From assembly GCA_964552055.1 (NCBI GenBank), contig CAZKFL010000005.1, positions 4,184 to 68,183 on the forward strand: DNA of 64,000 nt, read 5' to 3'. The position numbers and the translations under genes are program-made. The notes under the pieces are model-generated. The model saw only the letters and a program-made list of their open reading frames with translations. It made no database searches and had not been told where the DNA came from. Below, piece by piece: positions 1,357-55,010 of the stretch; positions within the stretch are counted from its first letter, which is position 1; each line of letters begins with the position of its first letter. This stretch comes from an uncultured bacterium (lineage in GTDB: Bacteria > Chlamydiota > Chlamydiia > Chlamydiales > 2-12-FULL-49-11).

Positions 1357-4300
1357 ATGAAGGATGTCCCTGCCAAAGCGTCTCATGTTCTAAATATAAT
1401 TTTACTTGCCTTTTTGCTTATTGGAATTCGAGTTTGGTATTTGGGTGTTGTTAAGCATGAAGAACATAAAGAGCTTTCAATGCGACCTCGTCAAAAGGTT
1501 GTTATAGATATTCCCAACAGAGGGACGATCAGGGATCGATTTAATATTCCTCTTGCGGTGAATAAAATTCAGTACAATGCATCGGTTATGTTTGATCAAA
1601 TCCGCAATTTGCCAAGGGTTACATACGAAAAAGATGCTTTTGGGAAGCGAAAAAGAATTTATTACAGAAAAGAATACATATCTAAGTTGTCCGCTTTTCT
1701 AGGCGAAAATCTTGGATTAGATCCTGTATACATAGAGGATTTGATCCACAGTAAGGTCTCTTTATTTCCAAATACCCCTTTTGTTTTAAAAGAAAATATT
1801 TCAGAGGAAGATTATTATAAGCTTCGAATACGAGAACGTGACTGGCCAGGACTCACCATGCAAATATCTTCGAGAAGGTATTATCCAAAGGGGCCTGTCT
1901 CTGCAAATGTTTTAGGATACCTTGGAACAATTAGCGAAAAGGAATTCTTATCGATTCAGGGTGAGTTGCAAACATTAGAGCGCTTTATAAAAGACCGCCA
2001 GATGGGCTTGCCTACAATATTGCCAAAAGGTTTTTTAAGCGCAGGAGATGTATCAAAGCGGTATAAAGAATTAAAAGATAAAAGCTACACCCTACAATCT
2101 AAGATGGGTAAATCGGGCATTGAGGGTAAATTTGATGACCAGTTAAGGGGCATTTCTGGCAAAAAAAAATATGAAATTGATGTGAAGGGGAACTTATTAA
2201 GAGAATTGCCAGAATCTTATACTGCAACACCAGGCAGAAGATTTATTTTAACGATTTCCTCTGAACTTCAAGAGTTTGCTGAGTCTCTTCTCATTGAAAG
2301 CGAAATGACTAGGCACGATCGGTTTCAAACAGCTGGAAAGGACCACTCCCTTGCATTTTCGCCTTGGATAAAAGGAGGGGCAATTGTTGCAATGATCCCA
2401 TCTACAGGTGAAATTGTAGCGCTAGCTTCCTATCCACGATTTGATCCCAATGATTTTGCACTAAAGTCAACTTCATTTAATGCAGCGAAATGGCTTGAAC
2501 TCCCCTCCTATATTGGTCAAATCTGGGATGGTATCAAACCACTTGAACGAGAATTTGGCGCTGTTTTTAAGCCTGAAAGATTTCGAGAAGTAGCGCCCCT
2601 CTCTCTTGGCCTTTATCTAGAGATGATTCTTTCTACAAAATCGGAAGTAAGGCGAGCAATTGAACATATAATGAATTTACAAACAGCAATTTATCTCCAA
2701 AATACTGCTGAAACATTATTTAATCTGAGCGGTGAAATTTCTATTCACGCTCTGATTGATACGCTGTTCCCTCCTGAAAAAGGACATAAAACATCTCTTT
2801 ATCATACCTCAAAAGAAAAGCGAATAGAAATTTTAGAAAAGCTTCAGCAAAAAACAACTCTTCTTGGAGAGTTAACAAAAGAGCTAACAACTTACCTTAG
2901 TGGTGTTACAGAAAATGATGATAAAATCCTAGTTCTTGATCTCATTCGATTAATTTGTCCGAGCCACCTATTTGACGATTCTCTTCTAACACAAACAGGG
3001 TCAGAATCACTTTTTGCTTATCGTGAATTTAATCAAGCTGTGATGAGCGTACAAAATGAGATTAAAAAAACAGCAAGAGAAGTATTTCATCATCACGATT
3101 TTCCCAAATGGCGCAAAGACTACTTTACCGGTTATCTTAAAGAGAAACGCGATGAGGAAAAAGCAAATAAAACCTATCAAAGACCTTATCTTGACTACCT
3201 TACTGAAATGGAAGAAGTTCTATTTGAAAGCTTTTTTCAAAAGCACCGTTTCGAATTTTTGGCAGCTTTTCTTTTAGACAATGCACCATTAGACAGTAAC
3301 GATCCGCGCTTTATCTATTTTGATGCACTCATCAAGAAAGGCTTAGACCACAAAATCACCTCTGCAAACTTACTTAAAAATCACCTCCTTACTTTAGATT
3401 CTGAATTTGTCATCCCCTATTTAAGGACGATGCGCTCTTTTAGCGAACTAAATCGACCACTCTTTGGAAGATATTACTTTCCCGCAAAGGCTGGCAAGGA
3501 AGCCACTGAAAAGGATTTAGCAAGGCATTTTTACCCAGCATCTGGTTTTGGGTATGCAAAATCTTTTGCTTTTCAAGAGACTTGCCCTCTTGGATCAATT
3601 TTTAAGTTAATTACAGGTTATGAAGGTCTTAGACAGCACTATCTCAAAGGTAAAGAAAAACACTCCTTCTCGCTTAACCCACTTACTCTAATTGATCAAT
3701 CACCAGCCTATACAGAAAAACTCTCTCCATCAACAATTCTTGGGTATACAGCTGCAGGTCTTCCTATTACAAGATCTTACAAAGGGGGAAGAATTCCGCG
3801 CGGTCACCTAAATATTGGTAGGATTGATTTAAAGGGGGCGCTTGAAAGGTCCAGTAACATCTATTTCTCACTTTTATCATCAGATGTTATAGAAAATCCA
3901 TCAGATCTTACCCATACAGCTTCCATGCTAGGATTTGGAGAGAAAACAGGAATTGATCTCCCAGGAGAAGTTAAAGGCTATCTGCCAACTGATATTCAAA
4001 CAAATCAAACAGCCTTATACGCGTTTTCTATTGGGCAACACTCATTAACCGTAACACCTTTACAGACAGCCGCTTGCATTTCCGCCTTTGCGAATGGAGG
4101 CAATCTTTTAAAACCTCAAATTATTAGCACTATTGCCAATTTGGAACCTCAGAAAACCCCAAGTATCATTGAGAGCAAAGAGAACTTTCGTTATAAAGAC
4201 TACCTCTATAATGTAGGTATCTACTTCCCCCTTTTTACAGAAGCAGAAGAGAGGCCGAGCATCCCCTTTATATGGAGATCCCTTCCAGAAATCAAATCTG

Positions 4301-4686
4301 AAATCTATCTTCCCTATGAAATTCGAAACTATCTCTTTGAAGGCCTGCATGAAGTTGTTAACGGCGCAAGAGGAACAGCCAGATCGTCAGTCATCAAAAC
4401 CCTTTCCGAAAATCCCCGCATGAAAAATGACTATGACACCACAAAACCTTACATGGCCGGCAAAACCTCGACAGCCGAAGTAGTCTATAGACCCTACCTA
4501 AACAGAGAAGAAGGCCCCATCATCTGCAAACACGTCTGGTTTGGAACAGCCGCCTTCACCTCCACCGAAACCTTCGAAGAAAGCGACCTAGTCGTCATTG
4601 TCTGCCTCCGCTTTGCCGACCACGGCAAAGAAGCCGCCCCCCTCGCTGCCAGAGTGATCAAAAAATGGCGCGAAATCAACCCCTAA
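1357..4686 (+). CDS. pbp2: Penicillin-binding protein 2-type transpeptidase, long (chlamydial-style) form with large insertions
   Basis: The 1109-aa ORF has an N-terminal TM anchor (VLNIILLAFLLIGIRVWYLGV) and a PBP dimerisation-like region. Transpeptidase motifs are SxxK (GSIFKL), SxN (ERSSNIYF) and a KTG-like KTS (AGKTSTAE). The ~1,100-aa length matches the long PBP2 known from Chlamydia. Confidence 0.85.
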   Translation: MKDVPAKASHVLNIILLAFLLIGIRVWYLGVVKHEEHKELSMRPRQKVVIDIPNRGTIRDRFNIPLAVNKIQYNASVMFDQIRNLPRVTYEKDAFGKRKRIYYRKEYISKLSAFLGENLGLDPVYIEDLIHSKVSLFPNTPFVLKENISEEDYYKLRIRERDWPGLTMQISSRRYYPKGPVSANVLGYLGTISEKEFLSIQGELQTLERFIKDRQMGLPTILPKGFLSAGDVSKRYKELKDKSYTLQSKMGKSGIEGKFDDQLRGISGKKKYEIDVKGNLLRELPESYTATPGRRFILTISSELQEFAESLLIESEMTRHDRFQTAGKDHSLAFSPWIKGGAIVAMIPSTGEIVALASYPRFDPNDFALKSTSFNAAKWLELPSYIGQIWDGIKPLEREFGAVFKPERFREVAPLSLGLYLEMILSTKSEVRRAIEHIMNLQTAIYLQNTAETLFNLSGEISIHALIDTLFPPEKGHKTSLYHTSKEKRIEILEKLQQKTTLLGELTKELTTYLSGVTENDDKILVLDLIRLICPSHLFDDSLLTQTGSESLFAYREFNQAVMSVQNEIKKTAREVFHHHDFPKWRKDYFTGYLKEKRDEEKANKTYQRPYLDYLTEMEEVLFESFFQKHRFEFLAAFLLDNAPLDSNDPRFIYFDALIKKGLDHKITSANLLKNHLLTLDSEFVIPYLRTMRSFSELNRPLFGRYYFPAKAGKEATEKDLARHFYPASGFGYAKSFAFQETCPLGSIFKLITGYEGLRQHYLKGKEKHSFSLNPLTLIDQSPAYTEKLSPSTILGYTAAGLPITRSYKGGRIPRGHLNIGRIDLKGALERSSNIYFSLLSSDVIENPSDLTHTASMLGFGEKTGIDLPGEVKGYLPTDIQTNQTALYAFSIGQHSLTVTPLQTAACISAFANGGNLLKPQIISTIANLEPQKTPSIIESKENFRYKDYLYNVGIYFPLFTEAEERPSIPFIWRSLPEIKSEIYLPYEIRNYLFEGLHEVVNGARGTARSSVIKTLSENPRMKNDYDTTKPYMAGKTSTAEVVYRPYLNREEGPIICKHVWFGTAAFTSTETFEESDLVVIVCLRFADHGKEAAPLAARVIKKWREINP

Positions 4687-4761
4687 TCTTGCAATCTTGC
4701 GGGGTCAGGCACCGATACTTGATTTGCTAATCTTGCAATCTTGCGGGGTCAGGCACCGATA
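4684..4761. repeat. Two identical 34-bp direct repeats (44-bp period) starting at the pbp2 stop codon
   Basis: taatcttgcaatcttgcggggtcaggcaccgata occurs at 4684-4717 and 4728-4761. The 28-bp core atcttgcaatcttgcggggtcaggcacc recurs at 13411 and 13443. Confidence 0.95.
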
Positions 4762-4901
4762 TGCAATTTATCGAAGCGAGAAATAACCCGCATTTATCGC
4801 AAAGAGAAATTGCAGATCGCGAGTCCGGTAGGATGGGCGGATCAGTGCTCTGCACGGACGCCCGAGCGATATGCAATTTATCGAAGCGAGAAATGCGGGT
4901 T
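4757..4901. repeat. Second repeat family: 28-bp direct repeat x2 plus complementary 11-mers
   Basis: cgatatgcaatttatcgaagcgagaaat occurs at 4757-4784 and 4867-4894. aacccgcattt (4785-4795) is the exact reverse complement of aaatgcgggtt (4891-4901). 4763-4784 can also pair (17/22) with 4792-4813. Confidence 0.85.
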
Positions 4902-7900
4902 AAAAGCGGATGCCGATCTGGGCGCCTGTCCGTTGGTCAAGGTATTGATGGCCAAGGTCGGCGTCATAAGTGACTGTGATGTAGGCGGAGTCTTGTGCAA
5001 AGTTGCCGGTGAGGGCGGCGCCTGGTGAGAAGAGGCTGCGGTTTGGGTAGTAACCCTCTGTAAGGAAAGTTTGGGGGAAGTCTACGAATGATGAGGTGAA
5101 TAGAGTGCCGGTAATTCGGTTTTCGGAGACCCAACTGAGTTTGATATCTGCGATGATACGACTACGATTGGAAATGTTGAAGCATCTTGCAAAGTTGATT
5201 CCGAGCTCGTTTCTAAAAATCTGGGGATTTGTTTTATGTACGTCTAGATCATAGACGCCAGCTCCTGTTTCGGTGAAGGGCCTTTCATGTTGGATGATAT
5301 AGTCCATAGATTCAAAGGGTCTGATCGTAAATCCAAAACAATTAATATTTAGTCCGCCATCTAGGTGAGTTAAGAGTTGGGTTCCGTTATGGTTACTATG
5401 TGCGGTTGTATTGACGCCGGTATAAACAATTTTTCTGCTTGCAATGTAATTGTTTGTGGATCCAAGTAACGAAGCATTGATAAAGGTTAGCGTTCCTATT
5501 GCTGAGCCATAAACTCCAAGGTACCCACTTGTAACATGTCCGCTACCTTGATCTTTATACCACTTCACATCTGTGTATGTGCCGCCCCCCATAATTCCTA
5601 TGTAGCCATGTTTTGCAACATTGAAATCTAGACCAATTGAGCCACCACCGCTGCTTGTGTGGTACCCAACTTGTGGATTTGTATCGATAAAATTAGAGGG
5701 TTGTCTCAATTTTGAATTAAAACCATCGATCCAAAGGTAAACAGGATTACTATTGATTTTACACCCTTTTACATGGGGACAATGTTTTCTATCTAAAAGA
5801 TTTTGAAAGCGTAGACTAATTCCGTTTTGCACTCTAACGGCATTATTTTGCTGAATGATTGCAAGCCCTTTTAACTGAGCAGGACAAAGCTCATTTAACG
5901 CAACTTTTAATTCGGTTTGTGAAAGATCAAAAAGGTCATCTAACGGTTCTACCCAAGCAGCGATATTTGCATCAGAAATTGAGTCTATTACATAACCAAC
6001 TTGTCTTGCATTAAACCCTTCGCCAATTTCTACTGCTGACTTAACGGTTAGATACAAATAGAGGATGTCAGATGTATACTGAGTCACTACATCTGTTCGA
6101 TCAGATGGTGTAATCACATTTGTAAATGTACCTGTCAATCCCCCTGCTGCATTAATCACCTCATAAGCGTGGCTTGGATCATAAGTACCTCTTTGTGGAA
6201 TTACATTTAATGTGGCGCCCGAATTAATTGTAACAGCGCCAGTTGCAATTATATTATCAGATGTTACTTGTGATAACTCTACATTATAAGTAGATCCTGA
6301 TAAAGCAGTGTATGAACCAACATGCAATGTTCCAATGCTATTACCTGGCTCTATTATTCCAGAAACAGTGACACTACCTGCAATTGTTCCAACTCCCTTG
6401 ATCGTAGCGCCGGATGCAACTGTTGTCGCAGAAGAAGAAACACTCCCATTTACAACAAATGTTCCCGCATTTACAGCAGTGGTCCCTGTATAAGCACATG
6501 TTCCTGATACTGTAAAAGACCCAGCCCCCAGTTTAATTAAATTTCCGGCAGTTGCGCTCATACCGCCTGAAAAAACTGTCGAATTAGAGTTCCCCAAAGT
6601 CAGAGTTCCTGTACCTAAGTTAACTGTTCCTGCACCACTTAAATTTCCAATTGTGTTTGAAAAAGAAGCAAGATTTAAAGTAGCACCTGTTAGAACCGTA
6701 ACATCAGAAGTTGCAGAAAATGCTTGTGTACTGCCTGCAGCAAGAGTGCCTGCTGCGATTGTTGTTGCCCCTGTATATGTTTTTATACCATTAGTCGTAA
6801 ATGTTAAAGTACTTGTACCAGTTTTTGTAAATGTTCCAGATCCTGTCATAGTTCCTGATAAAGTTAATACACCACCGAGACTCAAAGAAATTGTTCCAGG
6901 GCCTGTAAGAGTAACAGCTCTTCCCGAAGAAAAATTACCTGCAATGTTAGTCAAAGTACCATTATTAAAAATAAGGGATCCTGCTACATTTCCAAGTCCA
7001 CTGTCCTGATAAATTTGAATGGCTCCACCACTAATTGTGGTATCGCCTGTATAAGTATTGATACCAGAGAGTTCTAACGTTCCTGCTCCAACTTTTTCTA
7101 AGCCACCACCTCCAGATATTATCCCGGAAAACGCAGTGCTTGTCCCATTAAATCCAACAGTTAATTTGCCACCACCTAGAGTTACTGAGCTACCACCAGT
7201 TCCTATCAAACCACCTATTGTATTTGGAAACCCAGCTAGGTTCAGTGTTCCTGCAGCAAGTGGAAAATAAACTGTAGACATAGAGGCAAATGCACTTATT
7301 GCTCCCGCCTGAAGTGTTCCGGCATTAATAGTTGTCAAATCTCCATATAATGCTTGCCCCGTTTCTGCAAGAGTAAATGTACCGGCTCCATTTTTTGTTA
7401 GGCCTCCATGAATAGTTGTTATGCCAACTATTGATCCAGAGAACGTACTCGTTGGATTAGCTAAGGTTAAAGTTGCATTACCGAGATAAACGGTGCCAGT
7501 TCCAGTTAAATCAAGAATGGTATTCGCATTACTATTTAGACTCAGCGTAGTGCCAGAAGATAAATTCACAAGTGATCCTGCAGAAAATGCAGCAGCAGCT
7601 CCGGCCTTAAATGTTCCACCAGTAACAAGAGTATTTCCAGAATAAGTTGACGTTCCACTTAAAGTAAAAACACCAGATCCTGCTTTTGTGATATTCGCAG
7701 CTCCTGTCCATGCAGTTGAATTGTAAGTCCCTGCATTATTATCACCGCCAAACGTTAAGGCTGTCGTTGAAACAATCGTTCCCGTTCCATTCAAGTTTGC
7801 AATCGTGTTTGGACCCGATGTTAACGTAAGCGTTCCACTGCTCATTTGAACCATTGAGTTAGATGATAAAGTTGTACCGCCCGTTGTCCAATTCCCTGCA

Positions 7901-10900
7901 ATTGTTGTAGTTCCCCCATACGTATTTGCACCACTTGTTGTAAATGTGCCAGCACTAAGAGTGACTCCCCCAGATCCGGAAATCACGCCCGAATAACTCG
8001 TTCCTCCAGTTACCATTGTCAATATTCCTGTCGATGCGCCAAGTGTTACATTCGTGGTACCTGTTAAGGAAGCGATATGTGTTGGATAGCCATTTAAGGC
8101 TAGTGTACCACCTGATAAGGTGACTGCTGTATAAATTGAGGTAGGCAATGCATCCACTATTCCCATTTGCAAAATGCCGCCACTCACAGTTGTTGTACCC
8201 CCATACGAACTGCTACGGGATAATATAAGCGTCCCAGTGGATCCTGTTATAACAAGACTTCCCGTACCGGCAATTGCTCCTGCAAAAGTAGTCGTTGTAG
8301 GTGTCGGGACACCTGTATTAATAGTTAAAGTTCCTCCTCCCCCTCCAAAATTGACTGTTGAAGGAGAATTTCCTGCTAAACTTGCAATTGTAGCTGAATT
8401 ATTGTTTAGTTGAAGAGATGTGTAGCTCTCAAGAAAAAGTGCCGAACTATGTGATAACGCATCAGCTGTGCCAGCAGATAGTACTCCGCTGTTAATAGTA
8501 GTCACACCGCTATAGGTATTTTGATTTAAACCAGTAGTATAAAGAGTATAATTTACAGAATTTGCAAATGTAAGACCGCCTGCGCCAGTAATTGCCCCAT
8601 AAAAATTGCCGGTTGGATTGGCAGTCCCTGGATATCCAATCGTCAACGTAGTATTTATATCATTTAAAGTTAAAGAAGTAGCACCTGCAGTAAGCGTCAA
8701 ATCTGTTAGATTTGCAATTGTATTAGCACCTGAAATAGTAAGATTGCCTGTATTCCCTACACCTGCAGGAAAAGAAACAGTTGCCGTATTGGGAAGGGTG
8801 CCTGCCCCGGCGGAAATGCCTCCCGAGCTATTGATTGTGATTGTTCCTGTATTGGTAATAGTTTGTGATCCGGCAAGTGTGAATGTTCCCGTTCCATTTT
8901 TTGTGAGTCCCCACCCGTCAGCATTAGCGGCAAGTATGCCTGAAAAAGTTTGGGAAGCGTTATCTCCCCCAAGTGAAAGGGTGCTGCCTGCTAAATTGAC
9001 AAATCCAGATCCCGTTAAATTTGCAATCACATTAGAATTTGAATTTCCATTGAGTTGAAGAGCTCCACCTGATGCAACATTAACAAGGGAATTTGCGGAA
9101 AACACATTAGATCCACCTGCACTAAGAGTTCCATACACAGTTGTAGTTCCGTAATAAGTAGTGCCTCCAGAAACGCCTGTTAATGTAATTGCGCAAGGGG
9201 CACTTATCGTCAAACTTCCGCCTGGTAAGCCGCCGTTATCAGTAATTGGTCCAGCAAAACTTTGAGAAGAGCCAGATCCCAGTCCGGAAAGAGTTAAGGT
9301 ATTACTATTAGTTAGCGCAACAGAACCCATTAAAGCTGCTGTAGAAGACAAATTTGCAACGGTATTATCAAAGTTATTTAAACTAAGCTCACCGCCCAAA
9401 AATGAGTCAGTAAAAGTAATCACTGACTTTGTAGAAAAGGTATTCGCACTACCTCCATACAAAATAGCGCCACCAGTTATTGTTGTTGGTCCTGAATAGC
9501 TTGAACTATTTTGCGTGGCATTTTTTAATGTTAAACTGAAACCAGATAGAGCAAGGCCTCCTGTTCCGGTGATGCTTCCTTCATACGTACAGCTAGGACC
9601 TACAATACTTAAGTTAACTCCGGATCCGGTTAATCGAACTTCACCACCTAAGCCACTTAACGTATTTACTGTATTGCTGCCCGTGATTTCAAAAATACCA
9701 TTTGTTACAATCAGATCTATATTAGGCGCGCTTACTGGAAAGACATTTGCTCCCACACTAAATGAAGAAAGAGAATTACTAAAATTAACTGTAAGGCCGC
9801 CAGAAGTAATTAAGTTGAAAGTTCCCGAAAAACTTTGATTTGTTAGACCTGTATAAGTAGGCCCTAACTGGAGCGCACTCCCAATCAAAGTGATTGCACC
9901 AGACCCTGTTAAGTTTGCAATCTGGTTATTATATGTGACTAGATTTAAAGCTCCCGAAGATAGAGTAAATAATGAATTCGGAGATAACGTGTTAACAGCC
10001 CCTGCTACCCAAGCACCCGAATCTTGAATTGTTGTTATACCTGTATAAGTATTTAAACCTGCAGTAAGAAAAGCTAGCTGATTTATAGTAAATGACAAGG
10101 TAGCCATTGTTGGAGTAGTTGCGCCATCTATGATTATACCGTTATAAGAACACGATCCCCCGGACGGAGTCATAGTAATACCCCCTCCATTTAGCTTCAC
10201 TTTACCGGTAGAATCACCACTTATTAAAAAATTAAGCTCTATATTCTTTCCATTTACATCTAAAATGCCGTTTGATGAGATTCCTAATCGGGTATCTCCA
10301 TTTAAGGCATTGCTACTCCCTATTAAAAGAGTTCCATTACTAAGCCCAATCAATGCAAGCGTACCTAAGTAATTCGAATTATTAAGTTCAAATGTACCAG
10401 CTCCGCTTAAAACAAGCGTATTTGTTCCGGGAGTTACGGCGTTCAACACCCCAGCATAACTACTTGTAGTAGAAATAGGCACATTAATTGTCAGATTAGC
10501 GCCCAAATTAACAATTGGAGTGGTAGCAGTAGTTGACAAACCTGTAATTGTAGTTGCCCCTGTAATATTCAGAGTACTTGAGCCACTCATGGCAATCGGC
10601 GCTGTCGAAGCTGCGCCATTAAAATTAAATGTGCCACTTGGCAGAGTCAGCGGCGACGAGTTTGAAGTCGTAATTGTTCCGACATATGTGCCACCAGTAG
10701 TTAGCGTAAGAGCACTAGACAAACTAACTTGAGCGCCAGCAGAACCATTTAATATAGAAATTGAGTTAAGTCCCGTATTGGAAAGAATTCCAGCTGCACC
10801 AACGGATACTGTACTGGAATTAGGAAGAGCACCTGCTGCTGCGCTTAGAGTTCCACCCGTAATTGTGATGGTTCCTGGAGCTGTAATGCTCGTACTATTT

Positions 10901-11772
10901 GATGAGTTACTAAGAGTAAAAGTCCCACCAGTAAGCTTAGTAATACCCCAACCTGAATTCGCAGAAAAGAGACCCGCATAGGAGCCTGAATTTAAAGTAA
11001 GCGTGTTACCGGCCAAACTTACAAAGGAGCCCGCATCCCCAGTTAAACTTGCTATAGAGCTATTATTCCCATTTAAAAAAAGAGCACCGCTTGTCATGGC
11101 AAAAGCGGAACTACTTGAGAGGCCAGCTGCACTACCTGCGCTGAGAGTTCCTTGAATTGTTGTTGCGCCTGAATAAGAGGAAGTTCCCCCTAATGTGAGT
11201 GAATTATTGCTTCCAATTGTAAGGCCACCTGCTCCACTAATATTTCCATTAAATGTCGATGATGCATTGCCATTTATCGTCAGAAGTGTGGTAGTCGCAA
11301 TTGATCCAGTCCCTGAAAGTGAATTAATTGTATTCGCAGCATTATTTAAAGTTAGAGTTCCAGAACCTAAAGTAAGATTTCCAGCGGAAATAGCCCCCGT
11401 AATTGAAATACCCGTTGCCCCAGGCGTAATCGTAATATTGTTTGTCGAAAAAATTAATCCGCAAGATATAGTGGCGCCTCCCGTACCACTGTTACTAATG
11501 CTACTTGTAACAGCCAAAGGACTGCCAGAGATTGTATAAGCACCCGTTGAATTAAATGCTAAGGTTGCAATACTCAAACCGGAAATATTCACACTAGGCT
11601 GAAAGGTAGGAGCCGCAGATGTAAAATTTGCAATTCCACTGGGAACTGCAGCCCCTGACCAATTTCCTGTCAAATTCCAAGCAGTAGACGTACCACCAAC
11701 CCAAATGCCATCAGCTGCACAAAGCTGTACTGCAAGAAGACCACAGGCAATTATATATCTGCTAATTTTCAA
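4900..11772 (-). CDS. Giant classical (type Va) autotransporter adhesin-like protein
   Basis: The 2290-aa ORF uses a TTG start and has a signal peptide (MKISRYIIACGLLAVQLCAADG). It carries dozens of autotransporter-associated beta-strand (PATR-like) repeats, e.g. LEKVGAGTLELSGINTYTGDTTISGGAIQI and FTKTGTSTLTFT..KTYTGATTIAAGTLAAG. The C-terminal ~290 aa have alternating beta-barrel character and end in GAQIGIRF, with the terminal aromatic residue typical of OM barrels. Confidence 0.9.
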   Translation of the reverse strand: MKISRYIIACGLLAVQLCAADGIWVGGTSTAWNLTGNWSGAAVPSGIANFTSAAPTFQPSVNISGLSIATLAFNSTGAYTISGSPLAVTSSISNSGTGGATISCGLIFSTNNITITPGATGISITGAISAGNLTLGSGTLTLNNAANTINSLSGTGSIATTTLLTINGNASSTFNGNISGAGGLTIGSNNSLTLGGTSSYSGATTIQGTLSAGSAAGLSSSSAFAMTSGALFLNGNNSSIASLTGDAGSFVSLAGNTLTLNSGSYAGLFSANSGWGITKLTGGTFTLSNSSNSTSITAPGTITITGGTLSAAAGALPNSSTVSVGAAGILSNTGLNSISILNGSAGAQVSLSSALTLTTGGTYVGTITTSNSSPLTLPSGTFNFNGAASTAPIAMSGSSTLNITGATTITGLSTTATTPIVNLGANLTINVPISTTSSYAGVLNAVTPGTNTLVLSGAGTFELNNSNYLGTLALIGLSNGTLLIGSSNALNGDTRLGISSNGILDVNGKNIELNFLISGDSTGKVKLNGGGITMTPSGGSCSYNGIIIDGATTPTMATLSFTINQLAFLTAGLNTYTGITTIQDSGAWVAGAVNTLSPNSLFTLSSGALNLVTYNNQIANLTGSGAITLIGSALQLGPTYTGLTNQSFSGTFNLITSGGLTVNFSNSLSSFSVGANVFPVSAPNIDLIVTNGIFEITGSNTVNTLSGLGGEVRLTGSGVNLSIVGPSCTYEGSITGTGGLALSGFSLTLKNATQNSSSYSGPTTITGGAILYGGSANTFSTKSVITFTDSFLGGELSLNNFDNTVANLSSTAALMGSVALTNSNTLTLSGLGSGSSQSFAGPITDNGGLPGGSLTISAPCAITLTGVSGGTTYYGTTTVYGTLSAGGSNVFSANSLVNVASGGALQLNGNSNSNVIANLTGSGFVNLAGSTLSLGGDNASQTFSGILAANADGWGLTKNGTGTFTLAGSQTITNTGTITINSSGGISAGAGTLPNTATVSFPAGVGNTGNLTISGANTIANLTDLTLTAGATSLTLNDINTTLTIGYPGTANPTGNFYGAITGAGGLTFANSVNYTLYTTGLNQNTYSGVTTINSGVLSAGTADALSHSSALFLESYTSLQLNNNSATIASLAGNSPSTVNFGGGGGTLTINTGVPTPTTTTFAGAIAGTGSLVITGSTGTLILSRSSSYGGTTTVSGGILQMGIVDALPTSIYTAVTLSGGTLALNGYPTHIASLTGTTNVTLGASTGILTMVTGGTSYSGVISGSGGVTLSAGTFTTSGANTYGGTTTIAGNWTTGGTTLSSNSMVQMSSGTLTLTSGPNTIANLNGTGTIVSTTALTFGGDNNAGTYNSTAWTGAANITKAGSGVFTLSGTSTYSGNTLVTGGTFKAGAAAAFSAGSLVNLSSGTTLSLNSNANTILDLTGTGTVYLGNATLTLANPTSTFSGSIVGITTIHGGLTKNGAGTFTLAETGQALYGDLTTINAGTLQAGAISAFASMSTVYFPLAAGTLNLAGFPNTIGGLIGTGGSSVTLGGGKLTVGFNGTSTAFSGIISGGGGLEKVGAGTLELSGINTYTGDTTISGGAIQIYQDSGLGNVAGSLIFNNGTLTNIAGNFSSGRAVTLTGPGTISLSLGGVLTLSGTMTGSGTFTKTGTSTLTFTTNGIKTYTGATTIAAGTLAAGSTQAFSATSDVTVLTGATLNLASFSNTIGNLSGAGTVNLGTGTLTLGNSNSTVFSGGMSATAGNLIKLGAGSFTVSGTCAYTGTTAVNAGTFVVNGSVSSSATTVASGATIKGVGTIAGSVTVSGIIEPGNSIGTLHVGSYTALSGSTYNVELSQVTSDNIIATGAVTINSGATLNVIPQRGTYDPSHAYEVINAAGGLTGTFTNVITPSDRTDVVTQYTSDILYLYLTVKSAVEIGEGFNARQVGYVIDSISDANIAAWVEPLDDLFDLSQTELKVALNELCPAQLKGLAIIQQNNAVRVQNGISLRFQNLLDRKHCPHVKGCKINSNPVYLWIDGFNSKLRQPSNFIDTNPQVGYHTSSGGGSIGLDFNVAKHGYIGIMGGGTYTDVKWYKDQGSGHVTSGYLGVYGSAIGTLTFINASLLGSTNNYIASRKIVYTGVNTTAHSNHNGTQLLTHLDGGLNINCFGFTIRPFESMDYIIQHERPFTETGAGVYDLDVHKTNPQIFRNELGINFARCFNISNRSRIIADIKLSWVSENRITGTLFTSSFVDFPQTFLTEGYYPNRSLFSPGAALTGNFAQDSAYITVTYDADLGHQYLDQRTGAQIGIRF

Positions 11773-11792
11773 CTATATACCGCTTATTTTAA

Positions 11793-13355
11793 CTACTTTA
11801 GCTCTATCATAATGTTATGGGCTGAAACGATAATTTTATATTTATCGGGGAATTTCATTGTGGCAAATGAGCCTACTATACCATCCCCTGCAGATACAAT
11901 TTCATAAGAAGATCCAGAGGTGAAGGTAGAAGGTGGAGCAATATTAAGCGTAACATTATCCCCAATGATAAATTTTCCGGTTGTAGTAAGCGATTCATTT
12001 GATTCAAGATTTACTTCTAAAGTTGAATCAGAGCATTGTGAATAATTCCCCACAATAACCATTTTATCGGGTTTACAAAGCCCAAGATTTTTTACATCTC
12101 CAACAATAATGCCATTTCCTTGAAGAGTTGCGCCAGACTGTATTGTTACGCTCGAATTAATCATTCCCGTTAGATTAAAAACACCTTCAGTAATTGTTGT
12201 AGGTCCAGAATATGTGCTTAAACGAGAAAGAGTTAATGAGCCCTTTCCATTTTTAACAATTCCACCAGCACCTGAAATAGTACCGTCAATTAGAGAGTCA
12301 TTATCATCTGAAAGGGTTAGTATTGCCCTCCCAAGCTTTACCTCGCCACCGAGCAGTCCTCCTCCATTTATTGAAGGAATTGTACAATTATTTCCTGCTA
12401 AATCTAAAACGGCGCCATCCATATTAGCAATTTGAATGGAAGATGAAGAAGGAAAGGCATTCATAATTCCTGCTCGCAAGGTGCCATTATCAATTTTAAT
12501 TGGACCTGCAAATGAATTTTTTGGGCCAGATAAAGTTAAAGTTCCGATGCCAACTTTTACAAGGCCGCCCTCACCAAAAATGGAACCATTGTACACTGTA
12601 TTTGTATCATCACCAACAGTAAGAGTTGCACTACCTAGTAAAATATTGCCACCAAGATTTCCGCCGCCACTTAAACTAGCAATCGTATTATCGTAGTTAT
12701 TCAAGTCCAAGACAACACCCGATGTATTTAAAATCACAACTCCAGAAACAGGTGAAAATACATTCTTCCCATTGGCTTCTAATATCCCACTTTGAATTGT
12801 CGTTAATCCCCTATAACTATTCAAACCCGAAAGAGTTAACTTAGCTTGACCCTGTTTAGTGATTCCACCATTACCCGTAATCTCACCTGTAATCAGGCAA
12901 TAATCTTTTTCTCTACTGCAATTAGGATTTGTAATATTAGCGCTAATCACAATCGTATTCTCTAACTCGAGTAAAGAGTTAATCTCCGCCTTACCAGTCA
13001 CCAAAATTGAGTCGTAAACATTTAACTGACCTGAAGATAAGCTATACAAATACTCACTATTTATAACGATAGATTTAACACTTACAGTTCCATCGACAGT
13101 AATCTTTGCTGGCCTAGATAAAATAAAAGGGGGAAATGTTGCAACATCATTTCGACCATCTGGATAAAGCGCGTTCAATCCTGAACCTGGCACCCAATCT
13201 TTTTCCTCCTTCCACTTTCCGCCCCCATCATTTTTCCACGTAGCAGAACCTGCTAAAAGACCCACCTGCGTAAGACTTAAAATTCCAAAACCCAAAAGGC
13301 AAACTGCATTTCTCAAAAAATACCCCCACAAAACAATTAACTGTCCTAAAAGCAA
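11793..13355 (-). CDS. Autotransporter passenger-like protein lacking a translocator beta-barrel (start codon uncertain, non-ATG)
   Basis: The 520-aa ORF has a signal-like N-terminus (LRNAVCLLGFGILSLTQVGLLAGSATW). PATR-like repeats include ITKQGQAKLTLSGLNSYRGLTTIQSGILEANG, LVKVGIGTLTLSGPKNSFAGPIKIDNGTLRAG and IVKNGKGSLTLSRLSTYSGPTTITEGVF. Its C-terminal module (SGATLQGNGIIVGDV...YEIVSAGDGIVGSF) parallels the pre-barrel module of the neighbouring gene (SGATIKGVGTIAGSV...YEVINAAGGLTGTF), but the ORF stops there. Confidence 0.7.
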   Translation of the reverse strand: MLLGQLIVLWGYFLRNAVCLLGFGILSLTQVGLLAGSATWKNDGGGKWKEEKDWVPGSGLNALYPDGRNDVATFPPFILSRPAKITVDGTVSVKSIVINSEYLYSLSSGQLNVYDSILVTGKAEINSLLELENTIVISANITNPNCSREKDYCLITGEITGNGGITKQGQAKLTLSGLNSYRGLTTIQSGILEANGKNVFSPVSGVVILNTSGVVLDLNNYDNTIASLSGGGNLGGNILLGSATLTVGDDTNTVYNGSIFGEGGLVKVGIGTLTLSGPKNSFAGPIKIDNGTLRAGIMNAFPSSSSIQIANMDGAVLDLAGNNCTIPSINGGGLLGGEVKLGRAILTLSDDNDSLIDGTISGAGGIVKNGKGSLTLSRLSTYSGPTTITEGVFNLTGMINSSVTIQSGATLQGNGIIVGDVKNLGLCKPDKMVIVGNYSQCSDSTLEVNLESNESLTTTGKFIIGDNVTLNIAPPSTFTSGSSYEIVSAGDGIVGSFATMKFPDKYKIIVSAHNIMIELK

Positions 13356-13410
13356 GATACAAAAAAAAACTTAACTGTACACACTTATTTAAATCAGGTC
13401 CCCTGAAATC

Positions 13411-13470
13411 ATCTTGCAATCTTGCGGGGTCAGGCACCATAATCTTGCAATCTTGCGGGGTCAGGCACCG
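13411..13470. repeat. Two further direct copies (30-bp period) of the 28-bp core repeat found at 4684-4761
   Basis: atcttgcaatcttgcggggtcaggcacc occurs at 13411-13438 and 13443-13470, in the same orientation as the copies at 4687 and 4731. Confidence 0.95.
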
Positions 13471-13486: not shown

Positions 13487-14953
13487 TTATAAATAAGTGA
13501 TTAGTTTTGAGGCGGTTAGTGGGGAGGGGGATTTGGCGCCGGCAAGGGCGTGGAGTGTTGCGCCGAGAGTTGCAGCCAGATGAAGGGAAGCGCCTTGGGC
13601 GATGAGGGTGGTGATGATGCCGGCAAGGGCGTCGCCCATTCCGGCGGTAGACATGTTGCTTGTTCCGAATGGGATAATGATTTTCGGGTGGTTAGGAGAA
13701 ATAATTGTTGTCGCAGGACCTTTATATACTATTATAATGTTATGAAGGAGGGAAAATTCTTCAGCTTTTTTTATGAGATCCAGATCGCCTAAACTTTCAT
13801 CTAATTGCAAAAGTTTTTGCAGTTCACCTTTATGGGGAGTGAGGATTGCATTTTCTACACCACCTTTGAAAAAAAAGAGTGCGTCGCCATCGATAACAAT
13901 GGGGCATTTTGCTTTACTATATAATAGGTCTAGTAATTTGGGAATATCCCCTGTTCTTCCTAAACCGGGGCCCACAAGGATTGCTTTTGTTCGATGGAGT
14001 TCTTCTAGCAATGTTTGTATTTGACTCATTCTTACAACTTCTGGTGGCAAAGCCGCTAATTCGCATTCCATTCCAGGTGAGTGAAATAGACGAATAATTC
14101 CAGCGCCCATTTTTTGCGCACCCATTGCAGCAATGATAGCGGCACCTGGCATACCAGGTGATCCCGCAACTAATACAACTTGTCCTACACTATATTTATT
14201 TGCAGTTCTTACTCTAATAGGAAGATTTTTTGAAACAATTTCTTGATTAACTATATATCCAAATGGAAGAGCTTTTTCTACATACTGTTTTGAGAGACCA
14301 AAATCGACTTTAATCAGATTCCCTACATAGTCAAAACCTTGATTATATAAGTGACCAACTTTCATAAGACCTAAATAAGCAGTAATTTCAGCAATAACCG
14401 CAACAGTTTCAACGCGCCCTGTATCCCCTGCTACACCAGAAGGAATATCAATAGAAATAACTGGATTTTGGGCCGCATTCACCTTATCAATGACTTCCTT
14501 CATAAGGCCTGTTACTTTTCCATGAAATCCCGTTCCAAGTAACCCATCTAATATAAGAATGTTGGGCGGAATAACAATCTCACCCACTGGATAAATCTCC
14601 CCCCCCATTTTAAGAAAACCGTTTGCATGAATCTGGCAGAGCTGACTACAATCACTGATTGGAAACAAGTGGTGCGCCGCTACTTTATAACCAATAGCCA
14701 AGAGCTTTTCACCCACAGAAAAGCAATCCCCTCCATTATTACCCTTTCCGCATAGTAGCAAAACAGTACGGGGCAATTTTTTTTCTTCTATATACCGTAA
14801 TACGATATCTAAAATTCCTAAAGCCGCCTTCTCCATATACTGATCTGCAGTAGCATCACCCTCCAAAATTGCAACAGATTCTATGCGTGCCATTTCAGAC
14901 GCAGATACAACCTTATCACCTTCAACAGAAACAGGAAAATATTTTTGAGTCAT
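13487..14953 (-). CDS. nnr: Bifunctional NAD(P)H-hydrate repair enzyme (epimerase + ADP-dependent dehydratase)
   Basis: The 488-aa ORF has an N-terminal YjeF_N block LLLCGKGNNGGDCF. The C-terminal carbohydrate-kinase-like domain contains VGPGLGRTG and STAGMGDALAGII. Confidence 0.85.
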   Translation of the reverse strand: MTQKYFPVSVEGDKVVSASEMARIESVAILEGDATADQYMEKAALGILDIVLRYIEEKKLPRTVLLLCGKGNNGGDCFSVGEKLLAIGYKVAAHHLFPISDCSQLCQIHANGFLKMGGEIYPVGEIVIPPNILILDGLLGTGFHGKVTGLMKEVIDKVNAAQNPVISIDIPSGVAGDTGRVETVAVIAEITAYLGLMKVGHLYNQGFDYVGNLIKVDFGLSKQYVEKALPFGYIVNQEIVSKNLPIRVRTANKYSVGQVVLVAGSPGMPGAAIIAAMGAQKMGAGIIRLFHSPGMECELAALPPEVVRMSQIQTLLEELHRTKAILVGPGLGRTGDIPKLLDLLYSKAKCPIVIDGDALFFFKGGVENAILTPHKGELQKLLQLDESLGDLDLIKKAEEFSLLHNIIIVYKGPATTIISPNHPKIIIPFGTSNMSTAGMGDALAGIITTLIAQGASLHLAATLGATLHALAGAKSPSPLTASKLITYL

Positions 14954-19449: not shown

Positions 19450-22400
19450 TTAGACTCTAAGGAAGATGGTATGGGGCTCTCTTATTGAGCGAATCTTATA
19501 AATGATATTTTGTAATGTGCTGCTTTGAAGAGAAGTTGATTTATGATGGGGGGAAATAAATGCCTTTAGAGCAGATAAGTCCGCTCTAAGTAGGTAGTCT
19601 GTAAGAATTGCTTCTTCCTTGGCGTCATAATATGTATGGCCAAATAGGAATTTAACTTGTAAAAAGATTTGCTCCAATTCAGGGGATTTTAGCAATTCTT
19701 TATTTACCCGTATTTTTCCTTCAGCAACTATGAGTTTTGTATTGATATCAACAATTGCTTTTATTTCCGTTGGAAGGTTCATTTCACTTCTTTCTTTTCG
19801 CAAAAGTTTGCGCTGCTCTCTAGCTTCCTCCGCAGAAAGAAGGATAAACTGGGTAAAGAGCCCCTCCTCATCAAATACTAATAGTGCTTCTAAAATTGGT
19901 ATTTGGAACTCATCAAAGGCAATCTTAGGAGTTGGCATTAGGTTATTAGATAGGATGATCCTGCGGTCTATTTCTGCGGCTATTGGCCTTATTTGATGAT
20001 TTACATGTCCTTTTAAAACATTTGCAAGTGAAAAGATTGTATGAGAAGCGCTTGGCGTAAGTATCTCGGGCCTTTCTGTATAAGTTAATTTCGAAGGCCA
20101 TTTTTTATGAAGAACAGACTCTCTTTTTTCCCTTTCATGTTTTACATGTTCCTTTACTTCTTGCTTAAGTTCCATTTTTTCTTTTTCCACTTCAAGTTCA
20201 GCTGTTGCCTGTGAAACTGTTACTTGCTGCCTAGCGCTACAATCAATTTTTTCTCGTTTTAAGACAGATTGTGGGTAGAAATTATGACCTATTCTCAGAA
20301 GACGCTCACTAATTTCCAAAAGCTCTCTATCTCGAAATAATGAGCTTGCTTGCGCCTCTCTATATAGGTGGCGCCTTAGATTTTCAAACACCTCAGCAGG
20401 TGTTGCATACACATCAATTCCACCAAAAAAGCGGGTCGGATTACCTGTATTTTCATTTAAGAAAATAGATTTAAATGATCTAATGATTTGTATCATCTTT
20501 TTAACATCTTTAGCTTCTATCGCTTTATCAAGAACTGCTCGCTGTATAACATTATGAAGGGCGGCTATATCAGAAGCAAAATTGTCTTCCAAACTTTCTT
20601 TTCCTTGATTTAAGAGGCAAAACGAAATGATTTTTTCAATTGTTAACTCGTCATCTCCTGCAATAAGCGCCTTTGTATAACCTGTTGTAATAAATTCAAT
20701 ATCTTGGTCTTTTGTTTTTAATCCACGCATTCTCCATATAGCTTGAAAAAGCTCTTCTGCAAGCGTAGATTCACCCACTGTAACAACTGCTTTGGTCTGA
20801 ATTCCTTGAACAATGTCTGCCGCGAATGTATGGCTTTGATCAAAGTAGGTAAGCCGATCTTCTGGAGGTATTTTACTCTCTTTAAAAGGCATTGGGGCTC
20901 CCCTTCCTTTTTCCCAAATCATCTGCTCTTTTTTTACATTATAAAATACGACTGCTTTAAGATCTGTTTTTTCGATGTGTCTTAAAAGAGTTCTTGCAAC
21001 AATCTCGTTTGATATCCCATTAAAAACAGCGCCCCTATCAATAATTGCTTTAAAACTAGAGCCTTTAGCAAAGAATCTGACGCAAATTTCATCTAATGCT
21101 TTGGAGGGGGCATCATCTAAAAGTGTATGACAAAGAGAATTTCTCTCCACAAGAAGAGAAACCGTCTCCCCTTGTGTTCCAGGATCTTTAAGCACAACTG
21201 AACCTTCAGGATAGGTTCCTGCATTATAAGGAGAAGCTGTGTAGCCGCTAAAACTTTTAAACATGGATGCCAAATTGTGGGCATTGTTAGAAATACTGTA
21301 ATTATAATACCGAATCTGGTCCCGTACATGAATTCTGCAGTAGTCAAGGACAATAAAATCTGATTGATTTAGATTTTCATAAATAGCATCTTTTTCAAGA
21401 GGTGAGAATGAAAAAAGGTCATGCCCTTTAGAATGGGTTTTAAAATAATTCCCTGCTTCCGTGTGATTCAGCATATCTAATGTATGGCCTGGAACTCTAT
21501 CTAGCTCTGCCTTTGCTTTTGCTTTTAGACTATCTATAAATTTATCTAACTGCGTTTTATTCAATCTATCGGAAAGGAAGAGAATAGCTGTCTTTAAAAA
21601 GGCTGAAAATTGAATCTTATAGGTGGACTCAACTTCTGGATTTTCGTTACCATCAGATGGTTTTGCAAATTCTTCACTTCCTTCCTTAAGAGTCGCATAA
21701 TTGACATGGACAATTTCTGAAAGAATACTTGGAAGAAGGGTATTTAGAGCTCCTTTAATAAGATCGATTCGCTCATCACTTTCTTTGTAGAATGCCTCAT
21801 TCAAAAAATAGCGCTCTATTGCTTCATTACCCCTTGATAAGACTCTTGCAAGAAGAGGCAATATATCCCTTTTATAATCTTCTTCTTTAATTCTTCGCGG
21901 AGTTTCTGATCTTAAAGATAAAACGTCAAGAAGAGCTAACATCACCTCTTCAAGAATTTCTGCGTGCTCCTTTGCAAGGGGTTTTGCTATTCCAAGTGGG
22001 TAGTTTAGCTCTGTTTTCCGATCAAATTCAATGTGAGCCTCATCAATATTAACGTTTGCATGTTTTCTGAGTTTAAATAAAATCTTTTGGAAAAGCTCTA
22101 ATCTTTCAAGCCAGCTACTTTTATCTTCTTTTTCAAAACTGCCTAAAACATCTAATCCTTCTTCTAAAAACCGTAGTTGTAATGCCTGAAACTGCTCTTT
22201 AGTTCCGTCCCAAATCCCTCTTCTTTCTATCATCTCATCTATATGAAGATTGAGCGCTTCTAATCTTTCTACTGTCCAACCAGATCTTGTGAGCGGAATT
22301 ACACTTGTTATTTGCTCAAAAAGCTCAAAAGAAACCTCTGCACTTTTTTCCGTTGCACTGAGAGCAATTGCGCTTGGACGAAGATTAATCACAATACTTT

Positions 22401-53354: not shown

Positions 53355-54614
53355 ATGGGCCATAAACGTATAAATGCCGATGAAGTTGCTTCAATTATAT
53401 TAGCAGGCGGCGAAGGAACTCGTTTAAAACCACTTACAGAAATTCGATGTAAACCAGCTGTTACATTTGGTGGTCGCTATAGAATCATTGATGTTGCCAT
53501 TTCCAATGCTCTTCACGCAGGGTTTAAAGACATCTATGTGATCTCACAATTTCTAGCGTCTTCATTAAATAACTATATCTTAGAAACGTACTCTTCCGAT
53601 GGATTCATGGGATCGCACTTACAAGTGCTCACTCCTGAGCAAAATTCCGATAATAAAAAAATTTGGTATGAAGGCACTGCAGATGCTGTTCGAAAAAATA
53701 TTGGAAGACTTTTAGAACACCCAGCAAACTACTTTGTTATCCTATCAGGCGACCAACTTTATTCCATGGATCTCTCTCATATGCTAGAAGTTGCAAAAGC
53801 AAATGACGCCGATCTCACCATTGCAACAATCCCTGTAAGCGAAAATGATGCAAAACGAATGGGCGTTATGAAAATAAATAATCATCTAGAAATTACAGAT
53901 TTTTTTGAAAAACCAAATGATGCTGCAAGCCTAGCTAAATTTTCTGTTAGTGAAGAGCTCCTACCTAACGCCAACCTCTCCTTTCTAGGCTCAATGGGAA
54001 TATATATTTTTAAAAGGCAAGCTCTTATAAACCTTTTACAAGAAGATCCGCGAGCAGATTTCGGCAAACATTTAATTCCTACCCAATTAAAGAAAGGAAA
54101 AACTTTTGCCTATATTTTCAACGGTTATTGGCAAGATATTGGAACCATAGGCTCTTACTATGAAGCCAATATGTGTCTTACAGAAAATTCTCATGCATGC
54201 CTAGATCTTTATAATGATATTAAGCCCATCTATACACAATCCTTTTCACTACCAGCAGCCAGGTTAATAAACACAACAGTCACAAACTCAATTATATGCG
54301 AGGGATCAATCATCTCTGCAGCCTATATTTCTCAAAGTATGATTGGGCTAAAAGCCTACATTGAAGAAGATTCCATTCTCAAAAATTCCATCCTAATGGG
54401 CTCATCGCTCCGTTCCAGTAAACCAAACATTCACATAGGCAAAAACTGCCACCTTGAAAAAGTAATTATCGACGAAGGCGCTTACCTAGAAGACAATATC
54501 ACTCTGATCAATAAAAAAGGCATTCTTACTTTTGATTCTCCCGAACTTAGTATCAGAGACGGAATCATAGTTGTTAAATCAGGTGTCCGTATCCCCTCCG
54601 GCTTCACCCTCTAA
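53355..54614 (+). CDS. glgC: Glucose-1-phosphate adenylyltransferase
   Basis: The ORF has ILAGGEGTRLKPLTEIRCKPAVTFGGRYRIIDVAISN and YWQDIGTIGSYYEAN, plus a C-terminal left-handed beta-helix region. Confidence 0.92.
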   Translation: MGHKRINADEVASIILAGGEGTRLKPLTEIRCKPAVTFGGRYRIIDVAISNALHAGFKDIYVISQFLASSLNNYILETYSSDGFMGSHLQVLTPEQNSDNKKIWYEGTADAVRKNIGRLLEHPANYFVILSGDQLYSMDLSHMLEVAKANDADLTIATIPVSENDAKRMGVMKINNHLEITDFFEKPNDAASLAKFSVSEELLPNANLSFLGSMGIYIFKRQALINLLQEDPRADFGKHLIPTQLKKGKTFAYIFNGYWQDIGTIGSYYEANMCLTENSHACLDLYNDIKPIYTQSFSLPAARLINTTVTNSIICEGSIISAAYISQSMIGLKAYIEEDSILKNSILMGSSLRSSKPNIHIGKNCHLEKVIIDEGAYLEDNITLINKKGILTFDSPELSIRDGIIVVKSGVRIPSGFTL

Positions 54615-54636
54615 AACCCTATGTAAAAAAGGGAAA

Positions 54637-54740
54637 TTAGCAAGGATACAATGATGAAAGGATAAAAAAATGAATTTATATCTCTCTTATAATTAGCATG
54701 TTTTTGTTTTTCTATCTTTCCATCATTCTATCCTTGCTAA
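54637..54740. repeat. Imperfect ~28-bp inverted repeat with 48-nt spacer inside a 396-bp gene-free region
   Basis: The left arm is ttagcaaggatacaatgatgaaaggata (54637-54664). The reverse complement of the right arm (54713-54740) is ttagcaaggatagaatgatggaaagata. A related direct repeat aaggataaaaaa(a)tgaa..tgaatt occurs at 54658-54677 and 54813-54836. Confidence 0.7.
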
Positions 54741-55010
54741 AAAAAAATGAACCAAAAATTTGCGTCAAAAATATGTCAAAAAAAGATATGGGTAATAGGA
54801 TGGGCATGATATAAGGATAAAAAATGAAAATGAATTAAAACATGTTGAATTCTTTTTTTATTTCTAGCTAACATCTTGAGGCATTCGCTCTAATTTCCCT
54901 ACTTTCGAATTTCGTTGTGTATACACTTGGTGGCATAATTTAGAAAAAAATGCTGTTTCTCGGGATGTGTCTGATATATTTTAAATTAAGCGTGTGATAG
55001 AGTTAAGAGT

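Follow-up and report, generated by a model that had tools for sequence, protein, structure and literature searches.

The 64,000-nt stretch of contig CAZKFL010000005.1 analysed here (the window) belongs to an uncultured bacterium of the Chlamydiales and contains four direct copies of a 28-nt sequence (ATCTTGCAATCTTGCGGGGTCAGGCACC; the 28-mer or unit), arranged as two arrays on either side of a pair of adhesin-like genes that encode a classical autotransporter and a PATR-repeat protein without a barrel. Our analysis leads us to conclude, with a probability of roughly 75%, that the 28-mer belongs to a lineage-specific family of repeats scattered through intergenic DNA, that this family descends from the terminal inverted repeats (TIRs) of a TIRtron, and that the two arrays landed independently beside an older autotransporter/PATR pair. 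The evidence that bears on this conclusion includes the distribution of the unit outside the window, the inverted copies that enclose a transposase gene, and the organisation of the orthologous region in related chlamydiae. The coordinates of the features are collected in Table 1.

An exact scan of the 64-kb window located the 28-mer four times, always on the plus strand, so that the four identical, equally oriented copies reported in an earlier note on this DNA were borne out. No further copy was present in the window even when 3 mismatches were allowed, and none of 100 dinucleotide-preserving shuffles gave any match. The start given in that note for one copy (13411) was correct and those for the other three (4687, 4731 and 13443) were each off by one; likewise, the 44-nt period stood for the left array (array A), while that of the right array (array B) measured 31 nt instead of 30. 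The unit is bipartite. Its first part consists of two tandem octamers (AATCTTGC); the other, the end block (GGGGTCAGGCACC), is quasi-palindromic and includes GGGGTCAG, which fits the motif GGGGWSAS exactly. The edge of the unit is sharp after GGCACC and slightly ragged before AATCTTGC. In array A the identity between both units reaches 35 nt, with CTAATCTTGC...GGCACCGATA present in the two of them; the extended segment of the first unit spans positions 4683-4717 and contains the pbp2 stop codon TAA (4684-4686). Because the flanks CTA... and ...GATA were co-duplicated, the second unit of array A is a local tandem duplicate of the first one.

With the 21-nt core of the unit as the query, the dispersal scan gave no match in species-representative genomes or in viral contigs, and six loci (L001-L006) on five large contigs from two metagenome assemblies, JACCDG and JACCDT. 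At these loci the units occur as solos and as direct arrays of two to four copies, with eight arrays including two that flank a transposase gene, and over 28 nt the units are identical in more than 20 instances. None of the six loci overlaps the genes of the window. The genes found beside the units are DUF5399/mraZ, DJ-1, clpX, SET-domain/recO, corA, signal peptidase (lepB), ahpC and a GT2 glycosyltransferase. Thus, of the possibilities that the earlier note had listed, a genome-wide intergenic repeat family is the one that agrees with the occurrence of the unit at other sites beside housekeeping genes, and no link of the repeat to accessory or surface genes was seen at L001-L006. Each array has its own spacer, which is repeated along with the unit (for example, with a 40-nt period in L002 and a 41-42-nt one that includes a T7 run in L001), and therefore the arrays grew by local tandem duplication of the unit with its flanks, after arrival. 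All arrays are head-to-tail, the sole inverted pair being the one around the transposase gene. As a separate observation, the top strand of the unit lies on the C-rich strand (negative GC skew) in seven of eight arrays of the window and L001-L006 outside the transposase locus. A replication-strand bias similar to that of IS200/IS605 may underlie this pattern, which is a weak lead because the loci are few, short and non-independent.

The inverted copies are at L005, where a gene on the minus strand (L005:1656-2606) encodes a 317-aa protein that matches Pfam Y1_Tnp (4e-15) and, at residues 227-286, Bac_DnaA_C (3.7e-6), together with the DnaA C-terminal part of TIGR00362. Among the NCBIfam models, REP_Tyr_transpos fits it best. 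In 21 homologues the HUH histidines (NHIH) are invariant, as is the tyrosine of the RYIHxNP motif, and PF08299 is precomputed on most homologues. Perfect 29-nt inverted copies of the unit flank the gene, two of them upstream and one downstream, with their GGCACC ends pointing outward; the nearer upstream copy ends 63 nt before the start codon and the downstream copy begins 8 nt past the stop codon. The inverted-repeat score reached 29 at this locus versus 10 or less in shuffles, and we estimated the chance of such a double, inverted and tight flanking at ~1e-6, given the density of arrays in the contigs searched. A locus of a second assembly, L102, is 100% identical to L005, with no difference in array copy number between the two assemblies, and also carries a chlamydial gene of the CT021 family. 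The transposase gene was found at one locus only, its next homologue being 55% identical. L001-L006 and the window have two other small repeat families in common (74-84% identity) and a similar G+C content, and both marker proteins are recorded on three NCBI contigs. From the identical units, the common secondary repeats, the similar G+C and the matching contig counts we infer that L001-L006 and L102 come from the organism of the window or from a very close one.

To place the protein in a wider context, species-representative genomes were scanned with a profile of the 317-aa sequence and inverted repeats were scored across each gene. Among 36 homologous loci, which come from many phyla, at least 18 had the gene between inverted repeats that contain GGGGWSAS and score above shuffled controls, and in L096 and L101 inverted repeats with GGGGWSAS flank the gene too. 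Typically, GGGGTCAG[GA]C is the outermost sequence of such an end-repeat, and one-base variants occur in several further loci. In about a dozen of 40 homologous elements the end-repeat goes on with lineage-specific tandem 7-10-mers (for example, GGGGTCAGGCC TGCAATTC TGCAATT). The tandem octamer that the earlier note had seen at the start of the core, AATCTTGC twice, is thus a real feature of the unit with counterparts in several phyla. Multiple tandem copies of the end-repeat on one side of the gene were present in many homologous loci. Chlamydiae accounted for two of the profile matches. In one of them, L022, the TIRYT gene is preceded by its own end-repeat in seven tandem copies, and a solo copy of this end-repeat lies near pbp2 at L007:6085. 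L022 comes from the same sample as L007, a relative whose PBP2 is 75% identical, and probably from the same metagenome-assembled genome.

The arrangement at L005 resembles the elements that Di Nocera, De Gregorio and Rocco (2013; BMC Genomics 14:522, PMC3733652) described as TIRtrons, in which a RAYT-like TIRYT gene is flanked by long TIRs and not by REP hairpins. According to these authors, many TIRs have GGGGWSAS in common, and some TIRs make up genomic families of moderate abundance, whose members occur singly, as dimers or in clusters. Quentin et al. (2018; PMC6006769) placed Bac_DnaA_C proteins in TnpA_REP subclass 2.1.2, subclass 2.1 corresponding to the TIRYTs, and noted that these genes are not accompanied by REP-like sequences. 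L005 fits this description in that a RAYT-like Y1 HUH gene lies between long non-hairpin inverted repeats, the unit has GGGGWSAS in the form of GGGGTCAG, the protein falls into the long subclass, whose C-terminal helix-turn-helix (HTH) is of the Bac_DnaA_C, HTH_23 or HTH_28 kind, its own HTH being Bac_DnaA_C-like and of the DnaA-domain-IV type, and extra copies of the end-repeat are dispersed at moderate abundance as singles, dimers and clusters. It differs in its host, an environmental chlamydia, the accessible text of both papers naming no chlamydial example; in the strand of GGGGTCAG, which is reversed with respect to the polarity seen in the 18 or more homologous loci; in its dispersed copies, which are direct tandem arrays or solos and never inverted pairs; and in the tandem 7-10-mers beside the motif, which the accessible text of the two papers does not mention.

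We then compared the window with the equivalent region of related chlamydiae. In the closest accessible relative, L013 (GCA_054403375.1; PBP2 79% identical), the genes have the same order and orientation as in the window: pbp2, a 2295-aa autotransporter, a 558-aa PATR protein and nnr. The autotransporter orthologue shows 60% identity in its C-terminal part, and the orthologue of the 520-aa PATR protein is 50.5% identical over its full length. The gaps between the outer genes and the pair are 8 and 33 nt long in L013 and lack the 28-mer. According to the alignment, the window is ~215 nt longer at the left junction, which corresponds to two units plus a separate hairpin element, and ~75 nt longer at the right junction; when the C-termini were compared, the position of array B fell on the final ~10 codons of L013 nnr and on its stop region. 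No target-site duplication could be recognised at the window/L013 junctions, and the flanks of about 20 units showed no clear pattern of target-site preference. An autotransporter orthologue was also present 3′ of pbp2 in L014 (PBP2 77%; four small open reading frames (ORFs) between), in L011 (PBP2 75%) and in the P0008 contig (PBP2 72%; an LRR/HECT gene between, and a 515-aa partner). These comparisons indicate that the pair is ancestral in the clade and that the repeats arrived later in the lineage of the window. Consequently, the proposal that the repeats are recombination substrates or insertion remnants bounding a cassette did not hold, since L013 carries the cassette and its gaps contain no repeat. 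The arrays at the 3′ ends of pbp2 and nnr did not deliver the pair, nor do they show any sign of moving it. Homologous deletion between direct repeats of 28-35 bp is physically possible, and nothing here suggests its occurrence. A truncation of pbp2 by array A cannot be claimed, because the C-terminal tails of PBP2 differ by 2-7 residues among relatives.

The DNA just 3′ of pbp2 is a variable spot among these relatives. L007 and L011, sister species with the same PBP2 (P0005), are 99.7% identical over 1130 nt and then diverge, with a radical-SAM gene in one and the C-terminus of an autotransporter in the other. This divergence could be caused by a strain rearrangement or by a chimeric assembly. 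What occupies this place in other relatives (L014, L015 and the P0008 contig) is an LRR/HECT-like gene, a set of four small ORFs or unrelated genes.

The mechanism that we favour would start with a transposase-like protein, encoded elsewhere in the genome, that recognises the unit and seeds single copies of it at new intergenic sites, probably during replication as other Y1 enzymes do. By analogy with the single-strand chemistry of the REP/RAYT and IS200/IS605 systems, the HTH might read the octamers while the HUH/Tyr domain acts at the GGGGTCAG block. The tandem octamer is indeed a plausible target for a DnaA-type HTH. Once landed, a unit was duplicated locally with its flanks, giving direct arrays of two to four copies with an array-specific spacer. 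Mobilisation of the unit by the transposase is inferred, and the genome of the window presumably encodes the cognate TIRYT. As for the earlier proposal of a shared protein-binding or terminator element, the terminator part failed, the unit having neither a hairpin nor a terminator-like site, and all that is left of the protein-binding part is that the unit probably serves as recognition site for the transposase-like protein, whose gene lies elsewhere.

Several observations weigh against the derivation of the 28-mer from TIRtron ends. No homologue of the cognate transposase was detected by tblastn in the 64-kb window, which also has no integrase or transposase by gene content, as the earlier note had stated for the surroundings of the pair. 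The ~10 arrays were found in ~775 kb and do not represent a genome-wide copy count, and the assignment of L001-L006 and L102 to the organism of the window is indirect. With 75.5 bits, the protein narrowly misses the curated REP_Tyr_transpos cut-off of 80. It is not obvious that solo half-sites could serve a transposase as a substrate. The literature searched yielded neither later work on TIRYTs nor biochemistry on any TIRYT. Finally, GGGGTCAG lies in the window family on the strand opposite to the usual polarity of the family. The block is still at the outer end, and from the outer to the inner end the window family reads GGTGCCTGACCCC and then the octamers. Since the block is quasi-palindromic and fully palindromic versions exist in relatives (GGTGTCWGACACC in L097 and CCGGTGCCTGTCACCGG in L034), its flip may be tolerated by a dyad-symmetric recognition mode.

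A bolder version of this explanation, which we put forward tentatively and would not bet on, is that in this chlamydial lineage the HUH homologue multiplies single non-palindromic half-ends, as opposed to hairpins or paired ends, and that these consist of the octamers and the quasi-palindromic GGGGTCAG block, inverted with respect to other members of the family. If it were true, recognition would involve double-stranded DNA, with the HTH on the octamers and an orientation-tolerant block, the dissemination route would be unlike those of REP/RAYT and IS200/IS605, and 'GGGGTCAG plus tandem 7-10-mer' would be a general recognition code of TIRYTs. Independently of this version, the autotransporter pair is not a repeat-bounded mobile cassette; it is an inherited locus beside which a repeat, selfish or semi-domesticated, settled twice independently. 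Derivation from TIRtron ends would also add environmental Chlamydiae to the hosts of TIRtrons, a class described only twice and experimentally unstudied, and offer a concrete substrate in the form of a 28-mer with two separable modules and its cognate 317-aa protein. The tandem short repeats beside GGGGTCAG across phyla hint at what the DnaA-like domain reads. For annotation, it is relevant that repeats of this kind break up metagenome assemblies and that they can provide genes with stop codons or split their ends, here those of pbp2 and nnr.

The 28-mer was also compared with other families of short repeats. The single-stranded DNA folds of the 28-mer had energies of -2.7 and -1.7 kcal/mol (z -0.4 and 0.0), and those of one or two units gave z values from -0.7 to +0.1. 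A REP hairpin, which takes an imperfect palindrome of 20-40 nt that folds stably, was therefore discarded, as the 28-mer has no significant secondary structure on either strand, and none of the tetranucleotides GTAG, CTAC, CGTC and GACG is present within it. The system resembles REP/REPIN-RAYT (Nunvar 2010; Bertels & Rainey 2011; Ton-Hoang 2012) in having a short intergenic repeat tied to a single-locus Y1 homologue, a transposase gene that is itself flanked by inverted repeats, clusters formed by tandem reiteration with flanking DNA, and copies located mostly 3′ of genes. In contrast, the unit is non-palindromic and has neither the GTAG/CGTC tag nor the inverted doublets of REPINs or the alternating orientation of BIMEs, and the protein has an extra HTH domain and stays just below the REP_Tyr_transpos cut-off. 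With IS200/IS605 it shares the HUH and tyrosine catalytic domain and a possible strand or replication bias. However, instead of inverted repeats IS200/IS605 have subterminal hairpins on one strand as their ends, the protein matches the IS200 model weakly (23.9 bits), and what is multiplied here is a short unit and not the single-locus gene. Like miniature inverted-repeat transposable elements (MITEs), the units would be non-autonomous short derivatives of the ends of a transposase element, dispersed in intergenic DNA. Yet MITEs keep both inverted ends around a short core together with target-site duplications, whereas here single ends occur alone or head-to-tail and target duplication is not evident. 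With units that are solo or in direct tandem only, without paired ends, a MITE was rejected. A CRISPR array was rejected as well. CRISPR arrays have unique spacers of ~26-72 nt and usually cas genes nearby, and the spacers here are 3-16 nt long and repeated within the array, with no more than four units per array. A literature search for the literal sequence matched only an unrelated synthetic oligonucleotide.

Among the remaining explanations, the one that survives best, although we consider it unlikely, is that a host DNA-binding protein uses the unit as an operator or structural site and that selection keeps the unit in place. A domesticated TIRYT with a role in regulation or in nucleoid organisation could be such a protein. 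Identity over 28 nt in more than 20 instances suggests either constraint or very recent spread, the tandem octamers resemble a protein-binding array, and the associated protein is predicted to carry a DnaA-type HTH that binds double-stranded DNA. Moreover, a gene at a single locus with its next homologue at 55% identity is what is found for domesticated RAYTs (Bertels et al. 2017; PMC5581495). Nevertheless, the arrays lie at the 3′ ends of genes and between convergent genes, in either orientation, with no consistent relationship to promoters. A promoter scan gave one weak plus-strand match across the first unit of array B and the junction between its two units, no better than chance. The co-duplicated flanks and the absence of the unit from the orthologous sites of L013 indicate, in addition, recent insertion and duplication.

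Far less probable is the idea that the direct repeats delimit a cassette that is mobile or recombinogenic, either as scars of its insertion or as substrates that delete or amplify the 8.65-kb block. It draws on the fact that four identical copies in the same orientation flank exactly two adhesin-like genes, the gene content that the earlier note had described and that Pfam supports. The identity of 28-35 bp is near the minimum length required for RecA-dependent recombination, and the region just 3′ of pbp2 is variable among relatives. As an account of origin it is already contradicted by L013, which has the pair at the same place without repeats. Besides, the autotransporter pair is kept in relatives down to 72% PBP2 identity, the unit flanks unrelated housekeeping genes elsewhere, the G+C content of the block is not distinct from that of its surroundings, and there is no integrase nearby. 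Least credible of all is a role of the arrays at the RNA level, where they would act as terminators, mRNA stabilisers or a small RNA, along the lines proposed for REP. In its favour, both window arrays lie just 3′ of coding regions, each L001 unit is followed by a T7 run and the neighbouring 120-nt hairpin is strongly structured. Against it, the 28-mer has no significant structure on either strand, a consensus terminator scan found no terminators, Rfam returned only tRNA-Gly (with gathering thresholds in the whole window and by E-value in 4600-5000), and the orientation of the unit with respect to the upstream gene differs, being sense after pbp2 and antisense after nnr.

Table 1. Features of the window and end-repeats of homologous loci.
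Feature	Position	Strand	Description
Unit A1	4686..4713	+	Tandem octamer AATCTTGC x2 and GGGGTCAGGCACC block
Unit A2	4730..4757	+	44 nt after A1
Unit B1	13411..13438	+	Between nnr stop (13487) and start of 520-aa PATR gene (13355)
Unit B2	13442..13469	+	31 nt after B1
Long-hairpin element, ~120 nt	4784..4902	.	Inverted repeat, 37-nt arms 4784-4820 / 4866-4902
pbp2, 1109 aa, left neighbour	1357..4686	+	Pfam PBP_dimer, Transpeptidase; homologues in Chlamydiae
2290-aa classical autotransporter	4900..11772	-	PATR passenger repeats and C-terminal beta-barrel
520-aa PATR-repeat protein without barrel	11793..13355	-	Pfam; conserved autotransporter partner
nnr, bifunctional NAD(P)H-hydrate repair enzyme, right neighbour	13487..14953	-	Pfam YjeF_N, Carb_kinase
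L031			End-repeat GGGGTCAGGCC TGCAATTC TGCGATTC
L036			End-repeat ...CCTGAACT CCTGAACT; 3 tandem end-repeat copies on one side
L057			Tandem 10-mers in end-repeat
L082, L093			Tandem short repeats in end-repeat
L096, L101			Closest homologues (53-54% identity); end-repeat GGGGTCAGGCC TGYAATYC TGCAATT

Besides the 28-mer, the window contains other small repeat families. The long-hairpin element of Table 1 lies between the convergent pbp2 and autotransporter genes, adjoins array A and abuts the stop codon of the autotransporter. Its RNA fold reaches -64 kcal/mol (z -6.9; z -5.8 for the other strand). Associated with it is the direct repeat CGATATGCAATTTATCGAAGCGAGAAAT, which occurs at 4757 and 4867 (4757-4784 / 4867-4894) and corresponds to the second small repeat family that the earlier note had placed between the arrays. 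A copy of the element that is 78-82% identical occurs at L006:2016-2117, also beside a 28-mer unit; the element is absent from L013 and has no match in Rfam. It is a second dispersed family, separate from that of the 28-mer, and may represent a MITE/REPIN-like element that terminates transcription in both directions. Another long hairpin, AT-rich and with a z of -4.4, was observed at ~54625-54802 (stem ~54637-54740), just 3′ of the ORF at 53355-54614. This third dispersed family has copies at L003:775-953 (84%), L001:7807-7927 and L004:13464-13510, the L003 copy being ~20 nt from a 28-mer unit. Also, between tRNA-Gly (1061-1131) and the start of pbp2, positions 1199-1317 share stretches of 46-119 nt at 71-83% identity with L003:1009-1054, L004:6873-6935 and L004:7739-7853, which represents either a fourth small repeat family or a conserved leader element.

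With regard to the genes of the window, the homologues of PBP2 put the organism among the environmental Chlamydiae, and the last 333 aa of the 2290-aa protein match the autotransporter beta-domain PF03797 (3.4e-32). Further neighbours include S2, tRNA-Gly, gpsA, a GT9/UDPGP protein, ruvC and ruvA. Finally, a 3007-aa ORF (19450-28473, minus strand) shows 65-70% inverted nucleotide similarity to a region ~14 kb away (20516-21285 versus 36278-35512, and 22134-22324 versus 34729-34539), which suggests the presence of paralogous giant surface-protein genes in opposite orientation.

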